From Octopus vulgaris (Eukaryota), in assembly GCA_951406725.2 (NCBI GenBank), contig OX597827.1, positions 28,706,001-28,770,000 on the forward strand: a stretch of 64,000 nt of DNA, written 5' to 3'. Every line of letters starts with the position of its first letter. Within the stretch, counting starts at the first letter, position 1. The translations under genes and the position numbers were made by a program. Shown in pieces: positions 3,529-51,041 of the stretch. The notes beneath the pieces are model-generated. The model did not search any database. It was given only the letters and a program-made list of their open reading frames with translations, and was not told where the DNA came from.

Positions 3529-4782
3529 ATAGAAAGAGGATTCGATATATATATCGGAGGATCAACACCAAGAAGGAAGAAATATTATTTACATATATTT
3601 ATTCGTCTTCCTGACAAGTAGTTAGAGGAAGGAGAAGTTGCTATCTTCCAGTAGAGCGGGAAAGTGTAAAGCATACACGGTGCTGACTAGGAAGGAAGTA
3701 AGGATAAAGTTGGCTCTGCTCTTATTTGCTGTATGCAAATGAGTTCGTTATTGGGGTCCAGAACTCTCGTTGGAAAAAGTTTTTCGCGTCCGTGTAGGGC
3801 CTACCACGTCACGTCCATTCACGGGTGTTGCTGTAGCTCAAATTAATGAGTATCGTGTCAGGGTAGACAAATGGCGTCCCAGTAATAACGATCTCTTCCG
3901 TACTGCTAGATCCGTTTACATTCTCCATTTTATTTTCATATCACCAAGTATGTAAACTGAGGGAGAATTGTCTCTTATTTCTAGTAACGTTCAAGCGATT
4001 GCGTACAAACTAATTCATCAACTCCAAGCATGGGTGTTGCTAGAATTATAAAGTCTCATTTTAAAATTGAACAATAGCGTCCCATCTGTAAAGAACCCCT
4101 CCGTGTTTACATATCCCTTTGAATTCCATTGTATCTTAAAATTATAATGTGTGTAATCTGAAGAATATTTAGCTGCTAATTCTTGCCAATCGGAAGACCA
4201 CGTACTATTTCCGTATCTAATTCATCTTAAAGTGTTTCTATTCTATTGGAGCGGAACACCGAAATTTGTAAAAAGGGTATCGATAAATGTCATAGAAAAA
4301 TTCTGAATTCCAAGAACAAAAAAGCATCAGACATCATATTTCCCTTTTTCGCCATAATATCAGTCGATTCCAATATATCATATTTACTGTGCGTTCTTCA
4401 AATATTTATCAAAGAACATGTTTTTAGTTTCAAGTCTTTCGCTTATCGTTTATTTATCTTGACTTATTATTTTGCTAAGCTACGTATCACGTATGTGTGT
4501 TTGTGTGTGTGTGTGTGAGCAGGAGATGCATGATCAAAAATACATACATACATATACCCCCACACATACACACACGCACATATGTATATATACATATACA
4601 CACACCACAGACACACACACACACATATATAAATATGTTAGGATAAACATGACTATATAGATACGTGTGTATATGTCTTTCTTCACTCAACATACACATG
4701 TATATACTTATATATGTATGTAGGTAAGTGTATGTTAATGTCTTATTTTCTTTGTTACATTCTCGCACAAATATTTATAAGC

Positions 4783-4825
<43 letters not shown>

Positions 4826-4964
4826 TACATATAGATAGAGAGAGATAGGGGTGAGAAGGAGGAGAGGGAGTGGGAAATAGAGGGAGAGAAAGATACGTAC
4901 AAACATACATATATCGACAGACAGATGTACATATATAAACCTATATATATATATACATATATAT

Positions 4965-5038
<74 letters not shown>

Positions 5039-40934: not shown

Positions 40935-41172
40935 AGAAAGACAGAGGGTTAGAGAGCAACGGTTTGCTTTGCGCTTCAAGTGTCACGCTACGGCGATCTA
41001 CAGGTTCTCATGTAGAGTTCAGATTTTTGCACAAAGCCAGCAACTTTGAGAGACTGTGTGAGTCGATTACATCAATAGGGGTCATTTATCATATTGAACC
41101 GTTATTCCTAACACATATTTCTCTGACCGTTATTTTTTTGTACATACATATAAATAGACACACATTCACAAA

Positions 41173-41203
<31 letters not shown>

Positions 41204-41612
41204 GCTCATATATAGAATAAATAATTATGATTCAGTTGAATTACGTATTTAAGTTGAGGCACCAAGTCTGTCCAGCATTGTCCGCACATATTTTATTCAC
41301 CGATATATATATATAGACATACATACATACATACATACATACATGCAGATATGCATACATACATACATATACATATGGAGGGAATCCAGAGGTAGACTTC
41401 ATCAGCTGTTAGACATTATATTATGGCTATTTATTTATTCAAAACAGATTCTAATAATATATATAAATACGTGTGTAAAGTACTATTAATTTCTAGAATA
41501 TAGAAAGAAGACCAGATTCTTACAGCTGTTTCTGCCAAGAGATCACAGTACCTCACATGTTTTTCCATCTTTTCCCTTAGTTGGTTGGATTCACAACCTC
41601 AAACTCTCTTTG

Positions 41613-41764
<152 letters not shown>

Positions 41765-41797
41765 ATATGTATGTATATATATATATATATACATATA

Positions 41798-41850
41798 TAT
41801 TCTTTTACTTGTTTCAGTCATTTGACTGCGGCCATGCTGGAGCACCACCT
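41798..41850 (-). mobile_element. SINE family 3 tail, truncated next to the Helitron 5' end
   Basis: TATTCTTTTACTTGTTTCAGTCATTTGACTGCGGCCATGCTGGAGCACCACCT. Confidence 0.8.
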
Positions 41851-42400
41851 ATAATCTTTATATATATAAAACTGAGAATGTGTGTCTGTCTGCCTGTCTG
41901 TCTGTTTGTTTCCCTAAAACTTGAGAACTACACAACCAATTTCATTCAAAATTTACACATGCCTTACTTAGGGTCCATGTATTTTCATGGGCAAAATAAT
42001 GCTCAACTTCTTCCTAGGGCGAGCCCATAGCAATATCATATCTTCTCCACTATATCAGTATTACGTGTTAAAAGTGAAACAAAAACATTTCTCTATTTTA
42101 TGTCAGATATTTCACTTAAACAATAAAAATAATAATAACAATTGAATTATATGTAGTAAGAAATAATTAAAATCAAACCAGAGTATAATATAATCGTAAC
42201 ATAACAAAAGTAAAAATAGCAATTGGTATAAAATTGCATCAATGACTTGAACTTGAATAAGTGGTTTCACATGAATGGGAATAAATTAAAAATAAAATTA
42301 GCGTGCAGAAATGGAATAGTCTAGATGGATAATAAAATAAATCAAAGAAAAGACTATTGTCTATAAAGTATACAATGTAGAGAAAATAGAAGATTTGAGC

Positions 42401-44327
42401 ACATGGCGGAACGCAAAGAGTGTGTTGGTTAGTTATTTTGCATGTGAAAATTTGGAAAAAAACTGTTAAAAAATTGTCAAAAATTGAATCGCTTGAGGCG
42501 TTTGCCGCTGCGTGTTTGAACCTTTTATAGAAGGTGTGTCGACCCTCAAGTCATGGAGACTTACGCGGGGGTCGCCACAATAAAAAGTGACGAGTCTCTT
42601 AGAATAAGAGAAGTGTTCTTTAGAAAAGAACAATTGAAGGAATACGAGAAGTTCGTCAAAAGGGAGGGTGACAGCGTGAAGCTGGTCCCACCTGTTGAAA
42701 CAATAGAGGAGAGAAATAACAAGACGATAACGTATAGAACGCAAGATAGAAACACGAGAAAACTGGTGAGAGTGACGATTGAAGAAATAGAGAAATGTCT
42801 GGGGGACATCATGAAAAAAGCGACTTTTGTAGACAGAGGAAAGAAATATGGTACGGTGGAGGTGAGATGCGCAACAAAGGAAGTGGCGGCCTCATTGGCT
42901 TCCACTGTCCTGAAAGCCGAAAATTTCACTATGTGGCCGACGTATAAAGGAAGACGAGGGGTACGGGTAAGAGTCCCAAAGGTGCCCCCAGATATTAAAA
43001 CAGAAATGCTGGTAACAGCCATTATTGGAGCAGCAAAGGAGGAAGTAGAAATAGGGTCAATCAAGGAGACGAACGTTGTAAATTGGAAGGGATTCGGAGT
43101 AGAGTTGTGGCTGATGGCCACAATGGAAGACATCGAAAGATTTCCCTTCCAAATAGAAATAGAAAACGAGAAAACAATTAGTGTAATAGTGGAGGGCAGA
43201 AAACCGAATTGCTACCTGTGCGGATCAAGAGGGCACATAAAAGGAATGTCCGCTGTATGAATTCACAGCGGAGCAAAAAGAGACACAAAGTGGAGAGAAG
43301 GAAAACGAACACGAAGGAAAGAACAGCGAAAACAAGGAAAAGGAAATAACGGAGAAACAACAAGAGAAGGGAAGTAACAGCGCACTGAAGGAAAATGAAA
43401 ACAAAGGGAAGAAGATAGTAGAAAAGGAGCAAAATTCACAGGGTGCAGAAGTAGTGGAGAAGGAGCCAAGGCAGAAGCAAGAGAAAGAAAAGGAAAGTAC
43501 ATTAAAGGAAAGAGAAAAAGCAGGAAAAGAACAAGAGAAGGAACAGAACCAAGAGAAAGGAAAAGATGGTATGCAAAAAGGAAAAGAAACAACAGGAAAG
43601 GAACATAAGGCACAGGGTAGAGAGACGGCAGACAAAGAGCCAAAAAGACAAGAGAAGGAAAAAGAAAGAAGAGAAAGCAAAAAGAGAGAAAGAGAGAAAC
43701 CGAGGGAGGAGAAAAAAGAGGAAGTAAGTCCTAAGAGAAAAACTAGAGAAAACGTAGGTGCGAATAGAAAATTCAAATACTATGGAACGTTGATCCATCA
43801 CAGGCACTGTGAGGAGATGGAAGATTTAATAAACGTAACAAATGGATATACGTGGGTCAGGATGGGCACCGAATGGAAAGAAACAGGTGCACTCGTCCAC
43901 GAGAACGACGCTGAGGCGTTCATCGAGGCAGCTGGCAGGAACGTGACAAAACATATGAAATGCCGACTTACAAGGTGGACACGAACGATGGAAATTTACC
44001 ATGATTTGGTAGAGATAATGGAGTATATATAAAAGAAAAGGTATTGTGAAAACTTTAATTTGGAAATGATAAAAAGAACTTTAAATTCTGGAAAAAAAAA
44101 AATGTTGAACTTTGTAAAATTTTTGAAATGTATGTTGAAAATGTGTAAAATGTTTTTATTTGGAAAATATTGTTGACGAATAAAAAACAAATGACGAAAT
44201 GTAACCGCTCGATTTCGGGGATCGAGTGGGCATTACACCACATTGTACAAACTTCATAATTCATTATTCATTTTTCCCCATTGTATTGTCCCATCTATGT
44301 TCGCCCCTAGTGGGTAATAATAAAACA
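42401..44327 (+). mobile_element. ORF1-only non-autonomous Tx1/L1-like element (unit A)
   Basis: Shares the head ACATGG.GGAACGCAAA and the 3' tail with the downstream LINE; encodes only a Gag-like ORF1. Confidence 0.75.
42553..44032 (+). CDS. Gag-like ORF1 protein (CCHC knuckle, long Lys/Glu-rich region); one frameshift near 43243
   Basis: RGKKYGTVEVR and VEGRKPNCYLCGSRGHIK/ECP; a +1 shift joins ORF 42553-43260 to the stop-free frame ending at 44032. Confidence 0.75.
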
Positions 44328-44553
44328 ACATGGAGGAACGCAAATCGCGTGTGTAGTGAGTTATTATATTTTTCCTTAGTGTATATTTTCTCCGTTATAT
44401 TCTACTGTGTGTCTAATTGTCTTTGTTTTTTGTTGTACAACTGTTGAAGTCAACCTTCGTGCGAGGGCTTCGTGTTGGTGTTCCCCCCTCCGTGGGGGAA
44501 AAACTATCATTATTGCGGCTTGTGCCAAGGGCTTGTTAAGCCAGTTGCTCGAG

Positions 44554-45836
44554 ATGGAATCCCCCATCTCATATTCCCCTGTGACTAGTGAAGCAGAATC
44601 ACCGGCGGTGTCGCCAATGAAAAAAGATATTGCAGCTCCAGCGAAAAAATTTTCAGAAGTAGCTGGCAAGAAAATCAAAAAAATAAACGTCGAAGACCTA
44701 AAGAAATATGCGGACTGTGTGACAAAAGAGGGCACGGAAGTGACAGTGGTCACAAACGCCCCAAAACAGGAAGAAATTGCTAAAAGAATAATAATTTATA
44801 AGACCTTTAATGATACAAAAAATTGAGGAAAAAAAAATCGAAAATTGCTTAAAACCAATAATGGATAAGATCACATACATCAATAGAGGAAAGAGATACG
44901 GCACAGTGGAGGTGCGATTCACAACAGAGGAGATAGCTAAAAAAACTATCTATGGAGCCAATAAAAGCGGAGAACATTGTTCTCCTCCCCCTGTATAGAG
45001 GAAAAAGAACATCAAAAATCACCATGAATAATATTCCGCCAGAAGCGGATGCCGAATGTCTGGTGGCAGCAGTTATGGTAGGCCTGGAGGGAAAAATAAA
45101 CATCCTCCAGGCCACAGTAGAGGAAGAAGAATTCTGGAAAGGACAGCGGATAATAATAGCCATCCAGGCAGAAATTCAAACATTGGAGGAGATTCCAGAG
45201 ACTCTAAAAATAAGCGAAGAAGATAGAGTAATAGTTTTCGTAGAGGGCAGAAAGCCGAGGTGCTTCGGCTGCGGCAAGAAGGGGCATGTAAGGGCGAAAT
45301 GCCAACCCCAACCCAAACCGCAGGAAGCAGCTCAGCCAGGTGGAAAAGAAGAAGTGTCACCAGTAGCAGCGTCGGGCGGCCCAGAAGGGACGGCTGAAGG
45401 TGTGGAGGTGACAGAGGCAGCGGAGCCAGCGACGGAGGAAAAAAAGAGCGAGGTAACGAAAAATGAGGAGGGGTGGTCAAAAATTACTAGAAAAAAAAGA
45501 AAAACTGAAACCACCCCTCCCAAAGTGATCATAAAGAAGAAAAGAGAGTCGATGAACTTATTTATGGCCGTTAAGGCATCGAACAACAGACTCGGGAATG
45601 TGTTGGCAGCTATGGCCAAAGTGGAAAAAATAGGAAAAAAAAATGACTATATAGTGTACAGAATAGGCCGGAAGGATTACGGACGGATAAAGTCCGAATT
45701 CTTTCATGACGTGGGCCCGCTCAGAATGGATATAACATCTCCATATATATTCGAGGGCCTGCGTCAGACTCCCCCACGAGGCCCAGAAAAAGAGACAAAC
45801 AAAGAAGAAAAAGAAAAAAACGAACCACTGATATAA
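44554..45836 (+). CDS. ORF1 Gag-like nucleic-acid-binding protein; two frameshifts at A-runs (about 44820 and 44942)
   Basis: RGKRYGTVEVR; VEGRKPRCFGCGKKGHVRAKC (CX2CX4HX4C); homologous to the unit A ORF1. Confidence 0.8.
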
Positions 45837-45844
45837 AGTAAGTA

Positions 45845-48800
45845 ATGGATTACATTTATGTTGGTTGTTTAAATGTGCGCGGCCTGGGATCAGGCTGGAA
45901 GCAAGGTCGCTTCCTGCATGATATCAGGTCGAGTAATTTAGATGTTATTGTTGCTACAGAAACCCGGTTAGAGGGGCCAAGAGGTCTACTCCCGCTGTTT
46001 GACGGCTACGAGAGTTTTTTCTCTCCTGGCAGTCCTACAGGCGGGGGTGGGGTGTTGGTCCTATTAAAAAGAAACCGGGTTTCTGAGAAAAAGTTAATTT
46101 TTGCAGATCCAGAAGGTAGGCTGGTCGTCATGGATTTGACGTTCAGTAACGGTAAAGTTATCAGACTGGTTGCAATTTACGCACCCAACCATAGAGGGCA
46201 AAGTGATTATTTTCGTGAACTGGAAAACTTTCTTGGTACTTCGCATTCATTAGTTGTGCTAGGAGACTTTAACACAATTTGCAAAGCGGATGTAGATTGT
46301 GTTAGCTCGCGTCCAGATAGAAAAGGTAACAGTGGCTTCATGGAACTGCTAAGCCGCTTTGAGCTAGCAGATCCTTATAGGCTGGAATTTCCGAACGCTC
46401 CATTGTGGACATGGTCAAACAGCGACGGATCTTCCAGGTCATATTTAGATAGAATACTAATTAGAAAAGTAGACAGAAATATAGCTAAGTGTCCACAGTT
46501 TTACCTGGTCAGCTACAGTGATCATAAAATGGTCACCTGTAAGCTTGACATAGATAAGGTTAAAAATAGAGGATCCGGTTACTGGAAACTTAATACGTCC
46601 CTTTTGGCGATTAAGGAGTACAAAGACCGGATTAGGACTATAATTCAGAGGGCACTCTCTGGTACCATCATTAATAACAAATGGTGGTACGCCCTCAAAC
46701 GAGCCATCAAATTCGAGTCAATTAGATATAGCATAGGAGTAGTGGCTAGAGAGGCTAGGAGGGAAACTACTCTAGTTAAGGAATTAGAGGAAGCCTTGAA
46801 AACTGGCTCCGCGGCTCAGGTGACGTCCAAGAGACTGGTGTTAAACCAGCACCTCGAGGCCAAACACATGGGCTGCATTGTCAGGGCTAGGATCCGCCAT
46901 ATGGGTTGTGAAGGAATCAACGCCGTGAGATGGGTGGAAGCTCAGCATGGTAACGATGCCACGATTCGATCTTTGACGAACCAACAAGGTGAGTTGATAA
47001 ACGAGCCCGAGGAGATGTGTGAGGCCTTTCAGGAGCACTTCGCTCAGCTTTTCGGTGAGTGCGGCGGACTGGATAGGAGAAGGGCCTTTACGGACCTCCT
47101 CGACGGGCTGCCGCGCTTATCGGGGCGAGATGCGGAGGGCTGTGAAGGGCCAATCACGCCTGGGGAGGTGGTTGAGGCGATGGCGGACTGCGGCGCGGGC
47201 AAGGTGCCGGATTTAGATGGTCTACCCTATGAGTTATATAAGAGTATGCCAGACTTGTTCGGGCACCTACTGGCGGAGGTCTATGCGAACTGGCAGCAGA
47301 ACGGGCTCATACCCAGATCTGTGCGCCGGGGAGTAGTGACACTCGTCAGAAAGGACCCGAGCAAGGGGGAGTGCATTGATAATTTTAGGCCCATCACTCT
47401 GCTAAACACAGAGTTGAAGATTTTGGCCAAAGTGTTATCGAAAAGATTGGCGCGTGTCGCGGATGGTCTGATCGGGGAGGTACAGACATGTGCCGTTCCG
47501 GGCAGAACCATTCAGGATAATCTCCATCTTATGCGGTACACTATAGAGGGGTTTAATAGCGATTCTGGCAAGGGTGGGGCACTGGTCCATTTAGACCAAT
47601 CTAAAGCATTTGATAGGGTCGACCATCGCTACCTGGTATCTGCCCTGGCACAGTTCGGGCTGAGCCTCGGCTTCCTCAGGTGGATTATCCAAATTTACGA
47701 CAACATCGACTCGGTAGTTCGGGTGAACGGCTTCTTGTCGAAGCCGTTCAACGTCAAACGCTCGGTTCGTCAAGGGTGTCCGCTCTCCCCGCTTTTGTAT
47801 GTGATGGCTCTTGAGCCATTACTGCGAAAACTGAGCGGCATCCCGAGACAGCCAGGTAGTGGAAAATCGGTGTCAGCGTACGCGGATATCACCATCATCG
47901 TAACCGAAATGGACCACATACGTAAAGTAGGCAAGGCCATAGAGGTTTACGAGACGGTGACAGGAGCAAAAGTTAATCGCGAAAAGTCAGTCGGCTTGCA
48001 ACTCGGCACCTGGAGAGGCAAGTCGATGCCTCCTGACAGCGTCGTGGGACGTTTGACGGAGGGTCCGATTAAGTTGCTAGGGGTTTGGTTCGGTCCAGAC
48101 CTCCAAATAGAGAAGAATTGGGGCGAGGTATCGAGCAGGGTGGCTGCAGTAACCAAGACCTGGTCTTGGCGGTGGCTATCCCTGAAAGGGAGGGCGGAGG
48201 TAGCCAATGTGTTTATCGCATCGGTTATCACCTACCGCCTTTCCGTCGTTCCTTGCCCTGATTCGTGGTTGATCAAGTTGGAAAGACAGCTCTTCTACTT
48301 CTTGTGGAAGGGCGGGAAACCACTTGTGAAACGCTCTACTTGCTGTCAACAACCGTTAAAGGGTGGGCTAGGGATGCCTTGGCTGATGATGCGCAGACAT
48401 GCGCTGAGGTTAAGACATCTGTGGCTCTACCTGGATGGTGAACGGGTGTGGTCTCCGCTAGCAAAACTGATGTTTCCCAAGTTCACTAGTTTCGGTGGAT
48501 GGGAAACCTGGCTGAATCGTAGATCGAAACTAGGCACATGGTACACGGAGTGTCGCAAGGCTCTCCTGCTATTCCGTCGCTCGTGCAACGCCTGCGGTGG
48601 GGGTTCCACCACATTCTTCTATAGAGGGTTGGTAGAGGCGGAATGTGAAGATACCTTGGGGGAAACCCTAGGTCTCGACGATAATCAGCTGGCCAGTCTG
48701 TTCCGACGTACGTTCGAGCCGAAGACACTGGACAACTTCCAGAAGTCTCTGGCATGGCAATGCTACAGAGGAGCTCTACCTGTTCGGGATAAACTCGCAA

Positions 48801-49228
48801 GGCACGGTGGCCAAGACAATCCAATATGTCCAAGATGCGAGCGGGATAGGGAAACCGTCCCGCACGCTATTGTTCATTGTTCGGACGTGTCTGAGGTGTG
48901 GGTTTATGCCGAACAGCTGTTGTCAAGCACACGAAGAGTACAGCTGTCGACTGAATCGATTACAAAAATTGACCCACCAGATTTCCTCGCGAAAGAAGGT
49001 AAGAATTGTTTTCTCGTAGTAGTAGCAATTGCGAAAGAGGTGATATGGAAGACGAGAATGAAAGGTTTACAGTCAGGCAAGTTCATCTCCAACCCTGGTT
49101 TGATGAATTATTTCATCTTTCACCTGAAAAGGAAGATAGGGCTGGAGAGAATATGCCTGACTAGGAGAGTGTATGAAGAACGATGGAAAAATGTAGCACG
49201 AAAGTTGCGAATGGATGTTACCACATAA
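45845..49228 (+). CDS. ORF2: APE endonuclease, reverse transcriptase and C-terminal Cys/His domain (Tx1/L1 clade), 1127 aa
   Basis: LNVRGL, ATET, IYAPN, GDFN, SYLDRI, SDH (APE); GYWKLN; FRPITLLN, LDQSKAFDRV, VRQGCPLSPLLY, YADI (RT); CPRC...ET..H..VHC. Confidence 0.95.
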   Translation: MDYIYVGCLNVRGLGSGWKQGRFLHDIRSSNLDVIVATETRLEGPRGLLPLFDGYESFFSPGSPTGGGGVLVLLKRNRVSEKKLIFADPEGRLVVMDLTFSNGKVIRLVAIYAPNHRGQSDYFRELENFLGTSHSLVVLGDFNTICKADVDCVSSRPDRKGNSGFMELLSRFELADPYRLEFPNAPLWTWSNSDGSSRSYLDRILIRKVDRNIAKCPQFYLVSYSDHKMVTCKLDIDKVKNRGSGYWKLNTSLLAIKEYKDRIRTIIQRALSGTIINNKWWYALKRAIKFESIRYSIGVVAREARRETTLVKELEEALKTGSAAQVTSKRLVLNQHLEAKHMGCIVRARIRHMGCEGINAVRWVEAQHGNDATIRSLTNQQGELINEPEEMCEAFQEHFAQLFGECGGLDRRRAFTDLLDGLPRLSGRDAEGCEGPITPGEVVEAMADCGAGKVPDLDGLPYELYKSMPDLFGHLLAEVYANWQQNGLIPRSVRRGVVTLVRKDPSKGECIDNFRPITLLNTELKILAKVLSKRLARVADGLIGEVQTCAVPGRTIQDNLHLMRYTIEGFNSDSGKGGALVHLDQSKAFDRVDHRYLVSALAQFGLSLGFLRWIIQIYDNIDSVVRVNGFLSKPFNVKRSVRQGCPLSPLLYVMALEPLLRKLSGIPRQPGSGKSVSAYADITIIVTEMDHIRKVGKAIEVYETVTGAKVNREKSVGLQLGTWRGKSMPPDSVVGRLTEGPIKLLGVWFGPDLQIEKNWGEVSSRVAAVTKTWSWRWLSLKGRAEVANVFIASVITYRLSVVPCPDSWLIKLERQLFYFLWKGGKPLVKRSTCCQQPLKGGLGMPWLMMRRHALRLRHLWLYLDGERVWSPLAKLMFPKFTSFGGWETWLNRRSKLGTWYTECRKALLLFRRSCNACGGGSTTFFYRGLVEAECEDTLGETLGLDDNQLASLFRRTFEPKTLDNFQKSLAWQCYRGALPVRDKLARHGGQDNPICPRCERDRETVPHAIVHCSDVSEVWVYAEQLLSSTRRVQLSTESITKIDPPDFLAKEGKNCFLVVVAIAKEVIWKTRMKGLQSGKFISNPGLMNYFIFHLKRKIGLERICLTRRVYEERWKNVARKLRMDVTT

Positions 49229-49470
49229 ATGTAAAACCGGACGAAACCAAAGTATCAGTGGGGAGACGGGGCTCGTGGGGTCCGAGCTAAACCCGCTCCC
49301 ACTCCATCCGTAATGTCTTCCGGTCTGTTCTCCATTCGATTTTTTATATTTTGTAATTTTTTGTAAATTTTTAAAATTCGCTTTGTTGTAAAACCCATTC
49401 GTGTATCTGACCCCATCATCAGATTGTATTGTCCCATCTATGTTCGCCCCTTGTGGGTAATAATAAAACA

Positions 49471-49790
49471 ACATGGAGGAAAGCACCTTCGAAAAGTGTC
49501 TTTGTGCGACTATGAAAGATATCTAATCAGAGGCGGTAAAGTCGCCACAATAGAAGCAAGGTTCGAGTCAACGGAGCGTGCAAGGGAGTATTCGACTCGA
49601 ACTTGCAAAGTGGAATTATATTTTACTTTTCCCTTTATATCTGGGACGTAGGACGTCCGGAAAAAAATTTTTAATGCATCCCCCCACCCCAGAAGTAGAG
49701 GTAGGCTGTATTGTAGCCACGCTTCTATACAAGAGGGAGGGCAAGATACAATTGATCGAAATTACAAGAGACGGGCTAACAATTCCAGTC
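49471..49790 (+). pseudogene. Third Tx1-like unit (C): head motif plus a deleted, frameshifted ORF1 fragment
   Basis: ACATGGAGGAAAGCA head; IRGGKVATIEARF...LLFPLYLGRRTS...PEVEVGCIVATLL..EGKIQL aligns with ORF1 of units A and B. Confidence 0.7.
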
Positions 49791-50149
49791 TGTTATATAT
49801 TTTGAGTATTGTTATCACTAGCGATATCAACATATAACTTTGTATTTCGTATTTTATGTGTAGATGTATATATATAGAAGTACATGTAATATGTACACAT
49901 ATATATACACATATATACATGCACTAGCACTATGACCCGGCAAGGCCGGGTCTTTAATGCTAGTATATATATATATATATATCATCGACCGCATATACTC
50001 AATGCTTGTTTTCTTGTTCGTTGGTTCGCTGCGTACATCGCTCTAGAGACGACTCCTGCATAACACTGGATGTTAGAATACCTGAAAGTCATATGCAAGT
50101 GAGACACCATGCTTCCAGTCCCATCCAAGGGTGGTGGATACCGACATTT

Positions 50150-50276
50150 CGCTGCTTTCAGTTTTCGTCCACTTACAAGACTTTGGTCGACCCGGTGATG
50201 TTATAGAAGACCAGCTGTGGGACTGAACCGGAAACCATGTAGCTGGCAAGCAAACTTTTTTACCACACAGCTACGT
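50150..50276 (-). mobile_element. SINE family 3, head fragment
   Basis: GTGGGACTGAACCGGAAACCATGT...ACCACACAGC. Confidence 0.7.
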
Positions 50277-50336
50277 CTATACATTTACATACACGCTCAT
50301 ATTTAAGTTGAGGCACACACACTCATATGTGTGTGT

Positions 50337-50435
<99 letters not shown>

Positions 50436-51041
50436 GTGTGTGTGTTGTGCATATATGCAGGTATTTATACATATATATTTGACACGTTATCTCGTTTGGA
50501 ATTTCTGTATCGATAATTTTTACGTAAACTAAACACTAGACGCAGAAATCCACAGGTTAAACAAACAGCAATTCATGAACGGGTATTTTGAAAAACTATT
50601 GGACAAAGAGTCATGGAACAACACAAGTAGAATAACAACAACAGCAACAACGAAATAAAAGGAAATAAACCTAAAATTCGACAGACACCAAACCTATTAA
50701 ATATGCACAAATCATACGCCAAGTGAATGATATAAATCAAATGAACACCAACCGCAGAATAGGTGAGCACATGATCAGAAACCCACGTAAACCAAGAAAG
50801 AAAACGTGTTACAACAAACTATATATTAACGTGAGTAATATACTATTAAAACAACTGAAATTAAAAACTTTCTGAAGAATAATAAATCAGAAACTTGTAA
50901 ACCCAGGAGCCGGTGACTAACGACCAATGTGGTTTATAGATTTCTATTGTAAACGTGTAGGTTGTAAATTTCATGACTATGGCTGCTATTCTGGCAGTAA
51001 ATTCAGTTGCATACTATGGGGTTGCAGAGTAGAGGAAACGA

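Follow-up and report, generated by a model that had tools for sequence, protein, structure and literature searches.

The 64,000-nucleotide stretch of Octopus vulgaris DNA analysed here, referred to as the window (contig OX597827.1 of assembly GCA_951406725.2, positions 28,706,001 to 28,770,000), contains a non-autonomous Helitron, a rolling-circle transposon, whose two arms are separated by retrotransposon units of a long interspersed nuclear element (LINE) of the L1/Tx1 type. The 7.07-kb insert consists of one unit with ORF1 only and one full-length LINE, and it belongs to a real, multi-copy system in which a LINE family with ORF1-only partners targets the Helitron and is not carried as Helitron cargo. 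Seen directly are an insertion site common to dozens of loci, LINEs that are younger than the Helitron arms around them, and ORF1-only units that end in the LINE's 3' tail. Together with the placement of 24 of 30 sorted LINE ends and with target site duplications (TSDs), these ages favour the second of two possibilities raised in an earlier note on this DNA, namely that a rolling-circle element carries a LINE array as cargo or that a LINE lineage targets the Helitron family; the LINE family likely aims at the Helitron rather than being carried by it. We consider it very probable that both units in the window were inserted by target-primed events of a site-preferring LINE lineage into an older Helitron.

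The composite in the window and its empty counterparts

Empty copies of the Helitron have a junction that reads GAAGATTTGAAC|ACATGGAGGAAAGCA, of which there are 315 exact matches in the assembly (as exact matches, a lower bound) and 0 in the control. It had been claimed that no TSD surrounds the array, yet a 15-bp duplication of this target both flanks the units and separates them. The left copy (42401..42415, on the forward strand like all features described here) has 2 changes plus 1 change just upstream, the middle copy between the units (44328..44342) has 1 change, and the right copy (49471..49485), at what is here termed site A, is identical to the empty target. The last unit, described previously as ending without a 3' tail, has the 48-nt tail of the first unit and stops at 49470; the segment 49471-49963 is not a tailless LINE unit and aligns to the right part of empty Helitrons. 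Contigs of independent public sequencing runs join 42400 to 49471 (X1, X15) or 42390 to 49471 (X19), corresponding to the empty form, and include both long and short empty Helitron forms.

The Helitron ends that the earlier note had recognized are present in the sequence and belong to one family. The left arm (41855..42400) begins with TC after A at 41855, followed by TATATATAAAA and (TGTC)n, while the right arm (49486..49963), which also contains the downstream half of a second site, site B, near 49782 that is unused in the window, closes with a terminal structure (49934..49963) composed of a hairpin of GACCCGGC and GCCGGGTC at 49934-49952, 7 nt, and CTAG at 49960-49963 before T. This hairpin folds with a z of -6.2 in the window, where 0 of 200 shuffles were equally stable, and of -5.0 in copy L014; the perfect 8-bp stem is a variant of the window copy, other copies having a 6-bp stem with a 7-nt loop. 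At 49924-49963, the hairpin extends as an imperfect palindrome up to the terminal CTAG; L199 has a related 3' end in which a 14-bp palindrome is almost perfect. When the left 556 bp were used as a query against the 2.8-Gb assembly, 1,033 first-look candidates were obtained, the best 40 of which scored 91-100%. At 29 other loci that were fetched, the left arm is joined to 49471-49963 in 20 and to 49775-49963 (the short form) in 4, and in the remaining 5 LINE units fill the same point. With the arms contiguous in 24 of 29 other loci, the two arms represent one non-autonomous family of ~1.04 kb. The ends therefore do not stem from different Helitron families, nor is the composite single-copy with unrelated flanks, the two outcomes that the earlier note had set against its own proposal; it is multi-copy with a common breakpoint.

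Among 33 empty copies with both ends located, from 49 examined, CTAG is present in 30, the 5' TC in 28, and CTAG|T in 29, with no duplication visible by eye in unique flanks; the 5' A was part of the end-search rule and hence provides no independent count, and many copies sit in (TA)n. The TC and CTRR ends, the GC-rich 3' hairpin, and A-T insertion without duplication all place the element among the Helitrons. A known RNA gene as the target was also considered and rejected, an Rfam scan of 41000-51000 having given 41 weak matches, none at gathering score.

Between the arms lie head-to-tail LINE units on the same strand, as had been proposed, although these are two units over 7,070 bp (42401-49470) and not about 7.4 kb. 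Unit 1 (U1a; 42416..44327) is a 1.9-kb non-autonomous retroelement with ORF1 only, in which ORF1 is split over two frames (42520-43260 and 43241-44032, with the frame break near 43238) and the CCHC knuckle is weak (zf-CCHC E 0.064, under the Pfam cut-off); the U1a copy at locus L091 has an ORF1 open frame of 504 codons. Unit 2 (U2; 44343..49470) is a full-length L1/Tx1-type LINE of 5.13 kb with an A-rich tail. Its ORF1 is likewise broken into two frames (44380-44826 and 44937-45836), with a visible C-x2-C-x4-H-x4-C pattern and Pfam scores under the cut-off. Its ORF2 (45845..49228; 1,127 aa) encodes an APE endonuclease, a reverse transcriptase (RT), and a C-terminal zinc finger (Pfam RVT_1 6e-27, Exo_endo_phos 6e-14, zf-RVT 1e-8; best PDB match L1 ORF2p, 2e-63). 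Because one Asp of the YADD motif is missing, the window ORF2 is likely inactive, and both window units are thus damaged. The LINE family is still young, with intact ORF2 frames of 1,132 codons in four copies and LINE kilobases that are identical between loci. The two units have only the 48-nt tail in common (63 nt with the TSD, 97% identical).

The ORF2 with endonuclease, RT, and zinc finger, the upstream ORF1, the TSD, and the A-rich tail place the LINE in the L1 group (APE-type) of non-LTR retrotransposons. Among named proteins, one from Argonauta hians comes closest, with 63% over the RT region. A reservation concerns the name: homologue searches gave no protein named Tx1, and the choice of Tx1 over another L1-group label is putative, the RT motifs probably resembling those of the Tx1 clade.

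Preferred sites and the ages of LINEs and arms

A LINE-only query (48900-49466) has 2,110 candidates in the assembly. Among the best 30, 16 LINE 3' ends (window included) adjoin the Helitron at site A, 8 adjoin it at site B, which is the site in the short Helitron form, and 6 lie at neither. The tail pattern has 322 exact matches, the first 100 of which, in genome order, were sorted by eye into 32 terminal ends at site A, 5 at site B, 4 at a further site C, and 19 elsewhere, in addition to 35 A-type and 5 B-type internal junctions classed by duplication alone. All 4 ends at this additional recurring site sit in Helitrons of the same family that have a longer form, and the LINE using the site is 77-90% identical to unit 2. 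When the 19 ends lying elsewhere were fetched, 0 adjoined Helitron arms, 2 were internal to off-target pairs, and 4 loci proved to be other families with the same tail. In this sample, 41 of 58 terminal ends are in the Helitron family. At site A there are 79 exact filled junctions, and of the 30 examined 24 are terminal and 6 internal. At site B there are 13, with 12 of them terminal, compared with 105 exact empty short forms; as exact matches, the counts at both sites are lower bounds. One tail variant was searched for further off-target copies and gave just 9 matches. A LINE is regarded as target-specific when more than 20% of its flanks lie in one repeat (PMC4494074), and both 24 of 30 and 41 of 58 exceed this proportion.

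The Helitron family is abundant (1,033 candidates in the left-arm search and 2,413 in another), and LINEs might in principle have become nested in so common a repeat by chance. This explanation we regard as having a negligible probability, since 5,000 copies with 3 sites each correspond by estimate to ~3 in a million per random insertion, against the observed 24 of 30, and these insertions occur at two exact bonds, all in the same orientation.

Numerous composites with both Helitron ends intact could also have arisen if a Helitron had acquired the LINE array, by capture or otherwise, on one or a few occasions and then multiplied it by rolling-circle copying, an explanation that the relative ages of LINEs and arms render very improbable. 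Cargo capture implies an insert without a TSD that is copied with its arms, whereas a TSD is present and insert and arm distances are uncoupled. Across 35 filled loci (L119, of another unit type, was left out of this comparison), the 30 closest pairs have LINE kilobases 0-0.7% apart and arms 3.9-9.2% apart, and LINE distances do not follow arm distances (Mantel rho 0.03, p 0.34). At site A, the closest pair of filled arms is at least 2.4% apart, while LINEs are as near as 0%. As the LINEs are near-identical while the arms have diverged, the LINEs entered Helitrons that had long been dispersed. A right-arm tree of 73 usable loci (36 filled and 37 empty arms; L085, L088, and L065, which are repeat places, and L036, a short unplaced contig, were dropped beforehand) has filled arms interspersed with empty ones and requires 29 changes of the filled/empty label, compared with a shuffled mean of ~24.7 and with 495 of 500 shuffles as low. 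Right-arm distance is also much the same whichever labels are compared, at 6.2% for filled-filled, 6.4% for filled-empty, and 6.6% for empty-empty pairs. In addition, one ORF1-only family occupies both long and short Helitron forms. The proposal of the array as rolling-circle cargo is accordingly refuted at the window's site A, and is not shown at site B. At site B, no character state sets the 16 filled arms apart from 30 empty ones, two unit types adjoin the site, and the sole near-identical pair, L277/L278, was rejected as a composite transposition because its outer flank is also common, making it a segmental duplicate.

Other observations weigh on the side of cargo or temper the case for targeting. 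Both arm trees have the shape of a star, none of their branches being starred, and alone cannot exclude a single origin. LINE distances at site B are mostly 2-5% and thus resemble the arm distances (median 5%), such that copying of composites is possible there, and three filled left arms are 1.3-1.6% apart. The targeting is a preference and not strict, since 6 of the 30 best LINE ends and 17 of the 58 terminal ends in the tail sample are found elsewhere. Finally, no autonomous RepHel partner with these arms was found among 20 fetched 10-kb loci (150 Helitron_like_N matches were scored among 1,172 candidates), the one 52-nt 3'-end match being in L199, 1.8 kb beyond another Helitron-like end. 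Separately, loci L036 (C188) and L037 (C15) match at 99% across the LINE end and the adjoining ~160 bp of arm and diverge further on, a likeness that counts in favour of cargo and that may represent 3' transduction or, in a contig of 2 kb, a chimeric assembly.

Site choice and array growth

According to the targeted-insertion explanation, two separate target-primed insertions likely put the ORF1-only unit and the LINE inside an older Helitron, with the ORF2p of intact copies presumably mobilizing ORF1-only RNAs in trans through the common 3' tail. Each insertion would leave upstream Helitron sequence and a copy of the duplication at the 5' junction, so that the next unit would usually enter at the 5' end. 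Full-length RNAs likely begin a few bases upstream of the cut, within the Helitron arm, and would therefore have a leader resembling the target, by which the left copy of the duplication is overwritten. The least certain step is the choice of site, which most likely depends on a short endonuclease preference (for cutting within the words AC|A or CA|A), itself most likely narrowed by RNA-borne flanks and/or a promoter in the Helitron arm.

Site and LINE lineage correspond. When 62 U2 3' ends are placed on a tree, those at site C group as a single clade (support 100) and those at site B make up a grade at the base, while the site A ends form a clade (support 99) within which the off-target copies are nested, and A and B rows are never mixed; U1a units divide likewise (5 A, 6 B; support 100/99). 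This match may be a plain succession in time. For the site-choice step only, and compatibly with the targeted-insertion explanation as a whole, it can be proposed that the endonuclease alone reads the site and moved from C to B and then to A through its amino-acid changes, the leaders being a by-product. We view this as a genuine possibility, if a somewhat doubtful one. Site reading by the endonuclease is established for Tx1L-EN in the accessible parts of PMC1950540, upstream sequence and cut distance are common to sites A and B, and ~7 endonuclease positions differ consistently between the B and A types, one of them beside the hairpin loop. However, the hairpin-loop segment is nearly invariant in A, B, and C copies, off-target sites have just a 3-4 nt word in common, the three sites have little common sequence and yet lie in one Helitron family, and off-target sites have been struck twice (L135, L137). 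The loop was placed from the L1-EN structure and PMC1950540.

Rewritten left duplication copies and two off-target copies with a Helitron-like leader suggest that flank-bearing RNA may help to set the insertion site. Left junctions are altered relative to the target in 15 of 17 filled loci, with a mean of 4.4 ungapped mismatches per 19 nt, compared with 0.2 per 19 nt in an empty control of 15 copies (without L003, L023, and L026, in which the anchor was shifted). A caution against this line of evidence is that the filled count is inflated by the shorter site B duplications and by a 1-nt deletion in L101. Variants of the left junction recur at different loci. The off-target full-length copies L137 and L113 carry the Helitron-like leader after their own clean duplication, and L136 has a leader of the L135 type on a look-alike site. 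Off-target duplications start with ATT in 4 of the 5 copies that are B-type or basal and in 0 of the 9 that belong to the A clade, these being related copies and not independent.

A TATA-like word is also found at a regular distance from the sites. TATAAAG begins 36-39 nt before sites A and B (in the window, as a putative promoter element at 42362..42368 that begins 39 nt before the insertion point), and TATATGAA begins 39 nt before site C; TATAW words number only 8 in 1,584 nt of the long Helitron form, and the L137 leader starts ~30 nt past the TATA-like word. This observation was made post hoc, and TATAAAG and TATATGAA are both imperfect TATA boxes. At off-target sites, an AT-rich word lies 38-41 nt upstream in ~4 of 11 by eye, which is not clearly above chance at 63% AT. 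We tentatively raise the possibility, which we think rather unlikely, that the landing site is inherited through RNA flanks and a borrowed Helitron-arm promoter rather than through the endonuclease alone. Transcription would then proceed from the TATA-like box 36-39 nt upstream of the cut, the RNA would carry its flanks and re-insert at a site of the same type, and a rare hop to a different Helitron position would start a site lineage that perpetuates itself (C, B, A), without any change in the endonuclease loop. Among the off-target insertions, L113 (C6:4.91 Mb) and L135 (C3:38.18 Mb) have downstream sequences that resemble each other, which may point to a different repeat as a fourth target.

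Fetched arrays range from 1 to at least 10 same-strand units of several families, with a copy of the duplication between units. Hallmarks of target-primed reverse transcription are visible: one site A unit that is truncated at its 5' end is flanked by a clean duplication of 16 bp, and at the 18 off-target loci examined clean duplications of 9-24 bp were found in 10, an altered one in 1 (L136), and none in 7. Among ORF1-only units of the longest array, those towards the 5' end differ by 0.2-1.9% from the nearest copies at other loci and those towards the 3' end represent an older group ~5% away; L137 and L119 have an age gradient in the same direction, and the unit distances of L129_5p, a short fragment, carry no meaning. 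Growth of the arrays at the 5' end is moderately supported and agrees with the R1 array model in the accessible parts of PMC2718515.

Other arrays are less clear in this respect. The gradient is ambiguous in L091 and L095, the neighbouring units of L120 are near-identical (five units, 0-0.6% apart, with the same single leader), and no difference separates the two units of L137 in their first 300 nt; the arrays may therefore owe something to duplication or conversion at the DNA level. A stronger version, in which a targeted first insertion is followed by lengthening mainly through unequal crossing-over or gene conversion, would account for L120, for A020 units 5-7, which differ by 0.2-0.5%, and for mosaic units in L137. 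We nevertheless judge it unlikely, because the window units are different families with only the tail in common, many arrays mix families and leaders, and several units are as near to other loci as to their neighbours (A020_2 to L119: 0.2%).

With regard to individual units, the U2 copies L137, L129, L130, and L113 are mosaic, with parts of the 5' untranslated region and ORF1 ~20% apart and ORF2 <4% apart; these mosaics are cases of ORF1 region swapping. At least one further 1.7-kb unit family, unlike U1 and U2 and with the same tail, occurs in the same arrays (L102, L105, L116, L127, L128). One unit in L116 appears to have made its cut 11 nt upstream of site A, and L105 (oriented 4286-5029) has an inversion inside a U2 copy, as twin priming predicts. 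No marks of A-to-G editing were seen in 11 U1a and 22 U2 copies (both window units included), private A>G not being in excess over G>A.

Relation to described systems and further observations

With this LINE family, a rolling-circle transposon joins the list of safe landing sites for LINEs. A single lineage has, apparently one after another, used three dissimilar sites within one target family, with ORF1-only partners following, and so provides a natural series for asking whether target switches arise from the endonuclease, RNA flanks, or promoter tethering. For repeat annotation, LINE-in-Helitron composites mimic gene capture by Helitrons. ORF1-only units that lie head to tail with autonomous LINEs are familiar from HeT-A, which stacks with TART and TAHRE at Drosophila telomeres, and HAL1 is a comparable element; the octopus arrays, unlike these, are interstitial, endonuclease-cut, TSD-spaced, and present at many loci.

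Targeting of DNA transposons (piggyBac, Mariner, Harbinger) or LTR elements by Tx1 elements, with TSD-spaced tandem copies, is already published. The accessible parts of PMC4494074 describe Tx1-Mar and SINEU-3 in Mariner-N4_AMi, Tx1-9_AMi in Harbinger, and Tx1-8_Crp and Tx1-4_AMi in LTR elements. As in octopus, a Tx1-type LINE there prefers a single position within a transposon that is non-autonomous, tandem copies separated by a TSD are interpreted as sequential insertions, hitchhiking is raised and then rejected, and non-autonomous partners use the same target. The octopus system differs in that its target is a Helitron-type element, its partners are ORF1-coding units of 1.8-1.9 kb and not snRNA-headed SINEs, and its arrays reach at least 10 units, with three sites in one target family that track the LINE tree. 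Similarly, Xenopus Tx1L, a site-specific APE-type LINE, forms composites by inserting in the non-autonomous transposon Tx1D, described as piggyBac-type (PMC4494074, PMC6719617, PMC1950540). Tx1L is described as stringent, whereas ~20-30% of ends in the octopus lineage are off-target, and the accessible Tx1L accounts describe no arrays such as those of the octopus lineage.

Drosophila R1 forms tandem arrays in 28S rDNA with a 14-bp TSD between copies, for which growth at the 5' TSD has been proposed, and its off-target full-length copies carry upstream target sequence that is interpreted as a target-derived RNA leader (PMC2718515). R1 belongs to a different clade with an rDNA target, and in the accessible parts of that source no ORF1-only partners are described and the leader-bearing type forms few arrays, whereas leader and arrays coincide in octopus. 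No LINE targeting Helitrons was found in the literature searched, Repbase, most subscription papers, and figure 3 and the supplements of PMC4494074 lying outside that search. An octopus repeat annotation (PMC13282606) includes recently active L1-Tx1 and Helitron families, and the words 'nested' and 'rolling' are absent from its accessible text.

Several additional observations concern related repeats. In L114 (C2:42.09 Mb), a U2 copy sits exactly at the 5' end of another Tx1-like element. An abundant SINE-like repeat has, at its end or within it, a near copy of the conserved LINE 3' tail (L106 9400-9480; L096 2125 and 2309; L145 4409; oriented positions), which suggests that the two form a SINE-LINE pair. 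Many RepHel matches on many contigs have identical scores and open frames of 1,400-1,744 codons, pointing to young autonomous Helitron families, whose ends in the loci fetched did not match the window Helitron family. In L218 (oriented 1-1046), a 147-bp piece of the left arm is present in at least 7 tandem copies. Finally, at G000:C27:24.19-24.28 Mb, seven empty short-form Helitrons lie on the same strand within 90 kb.

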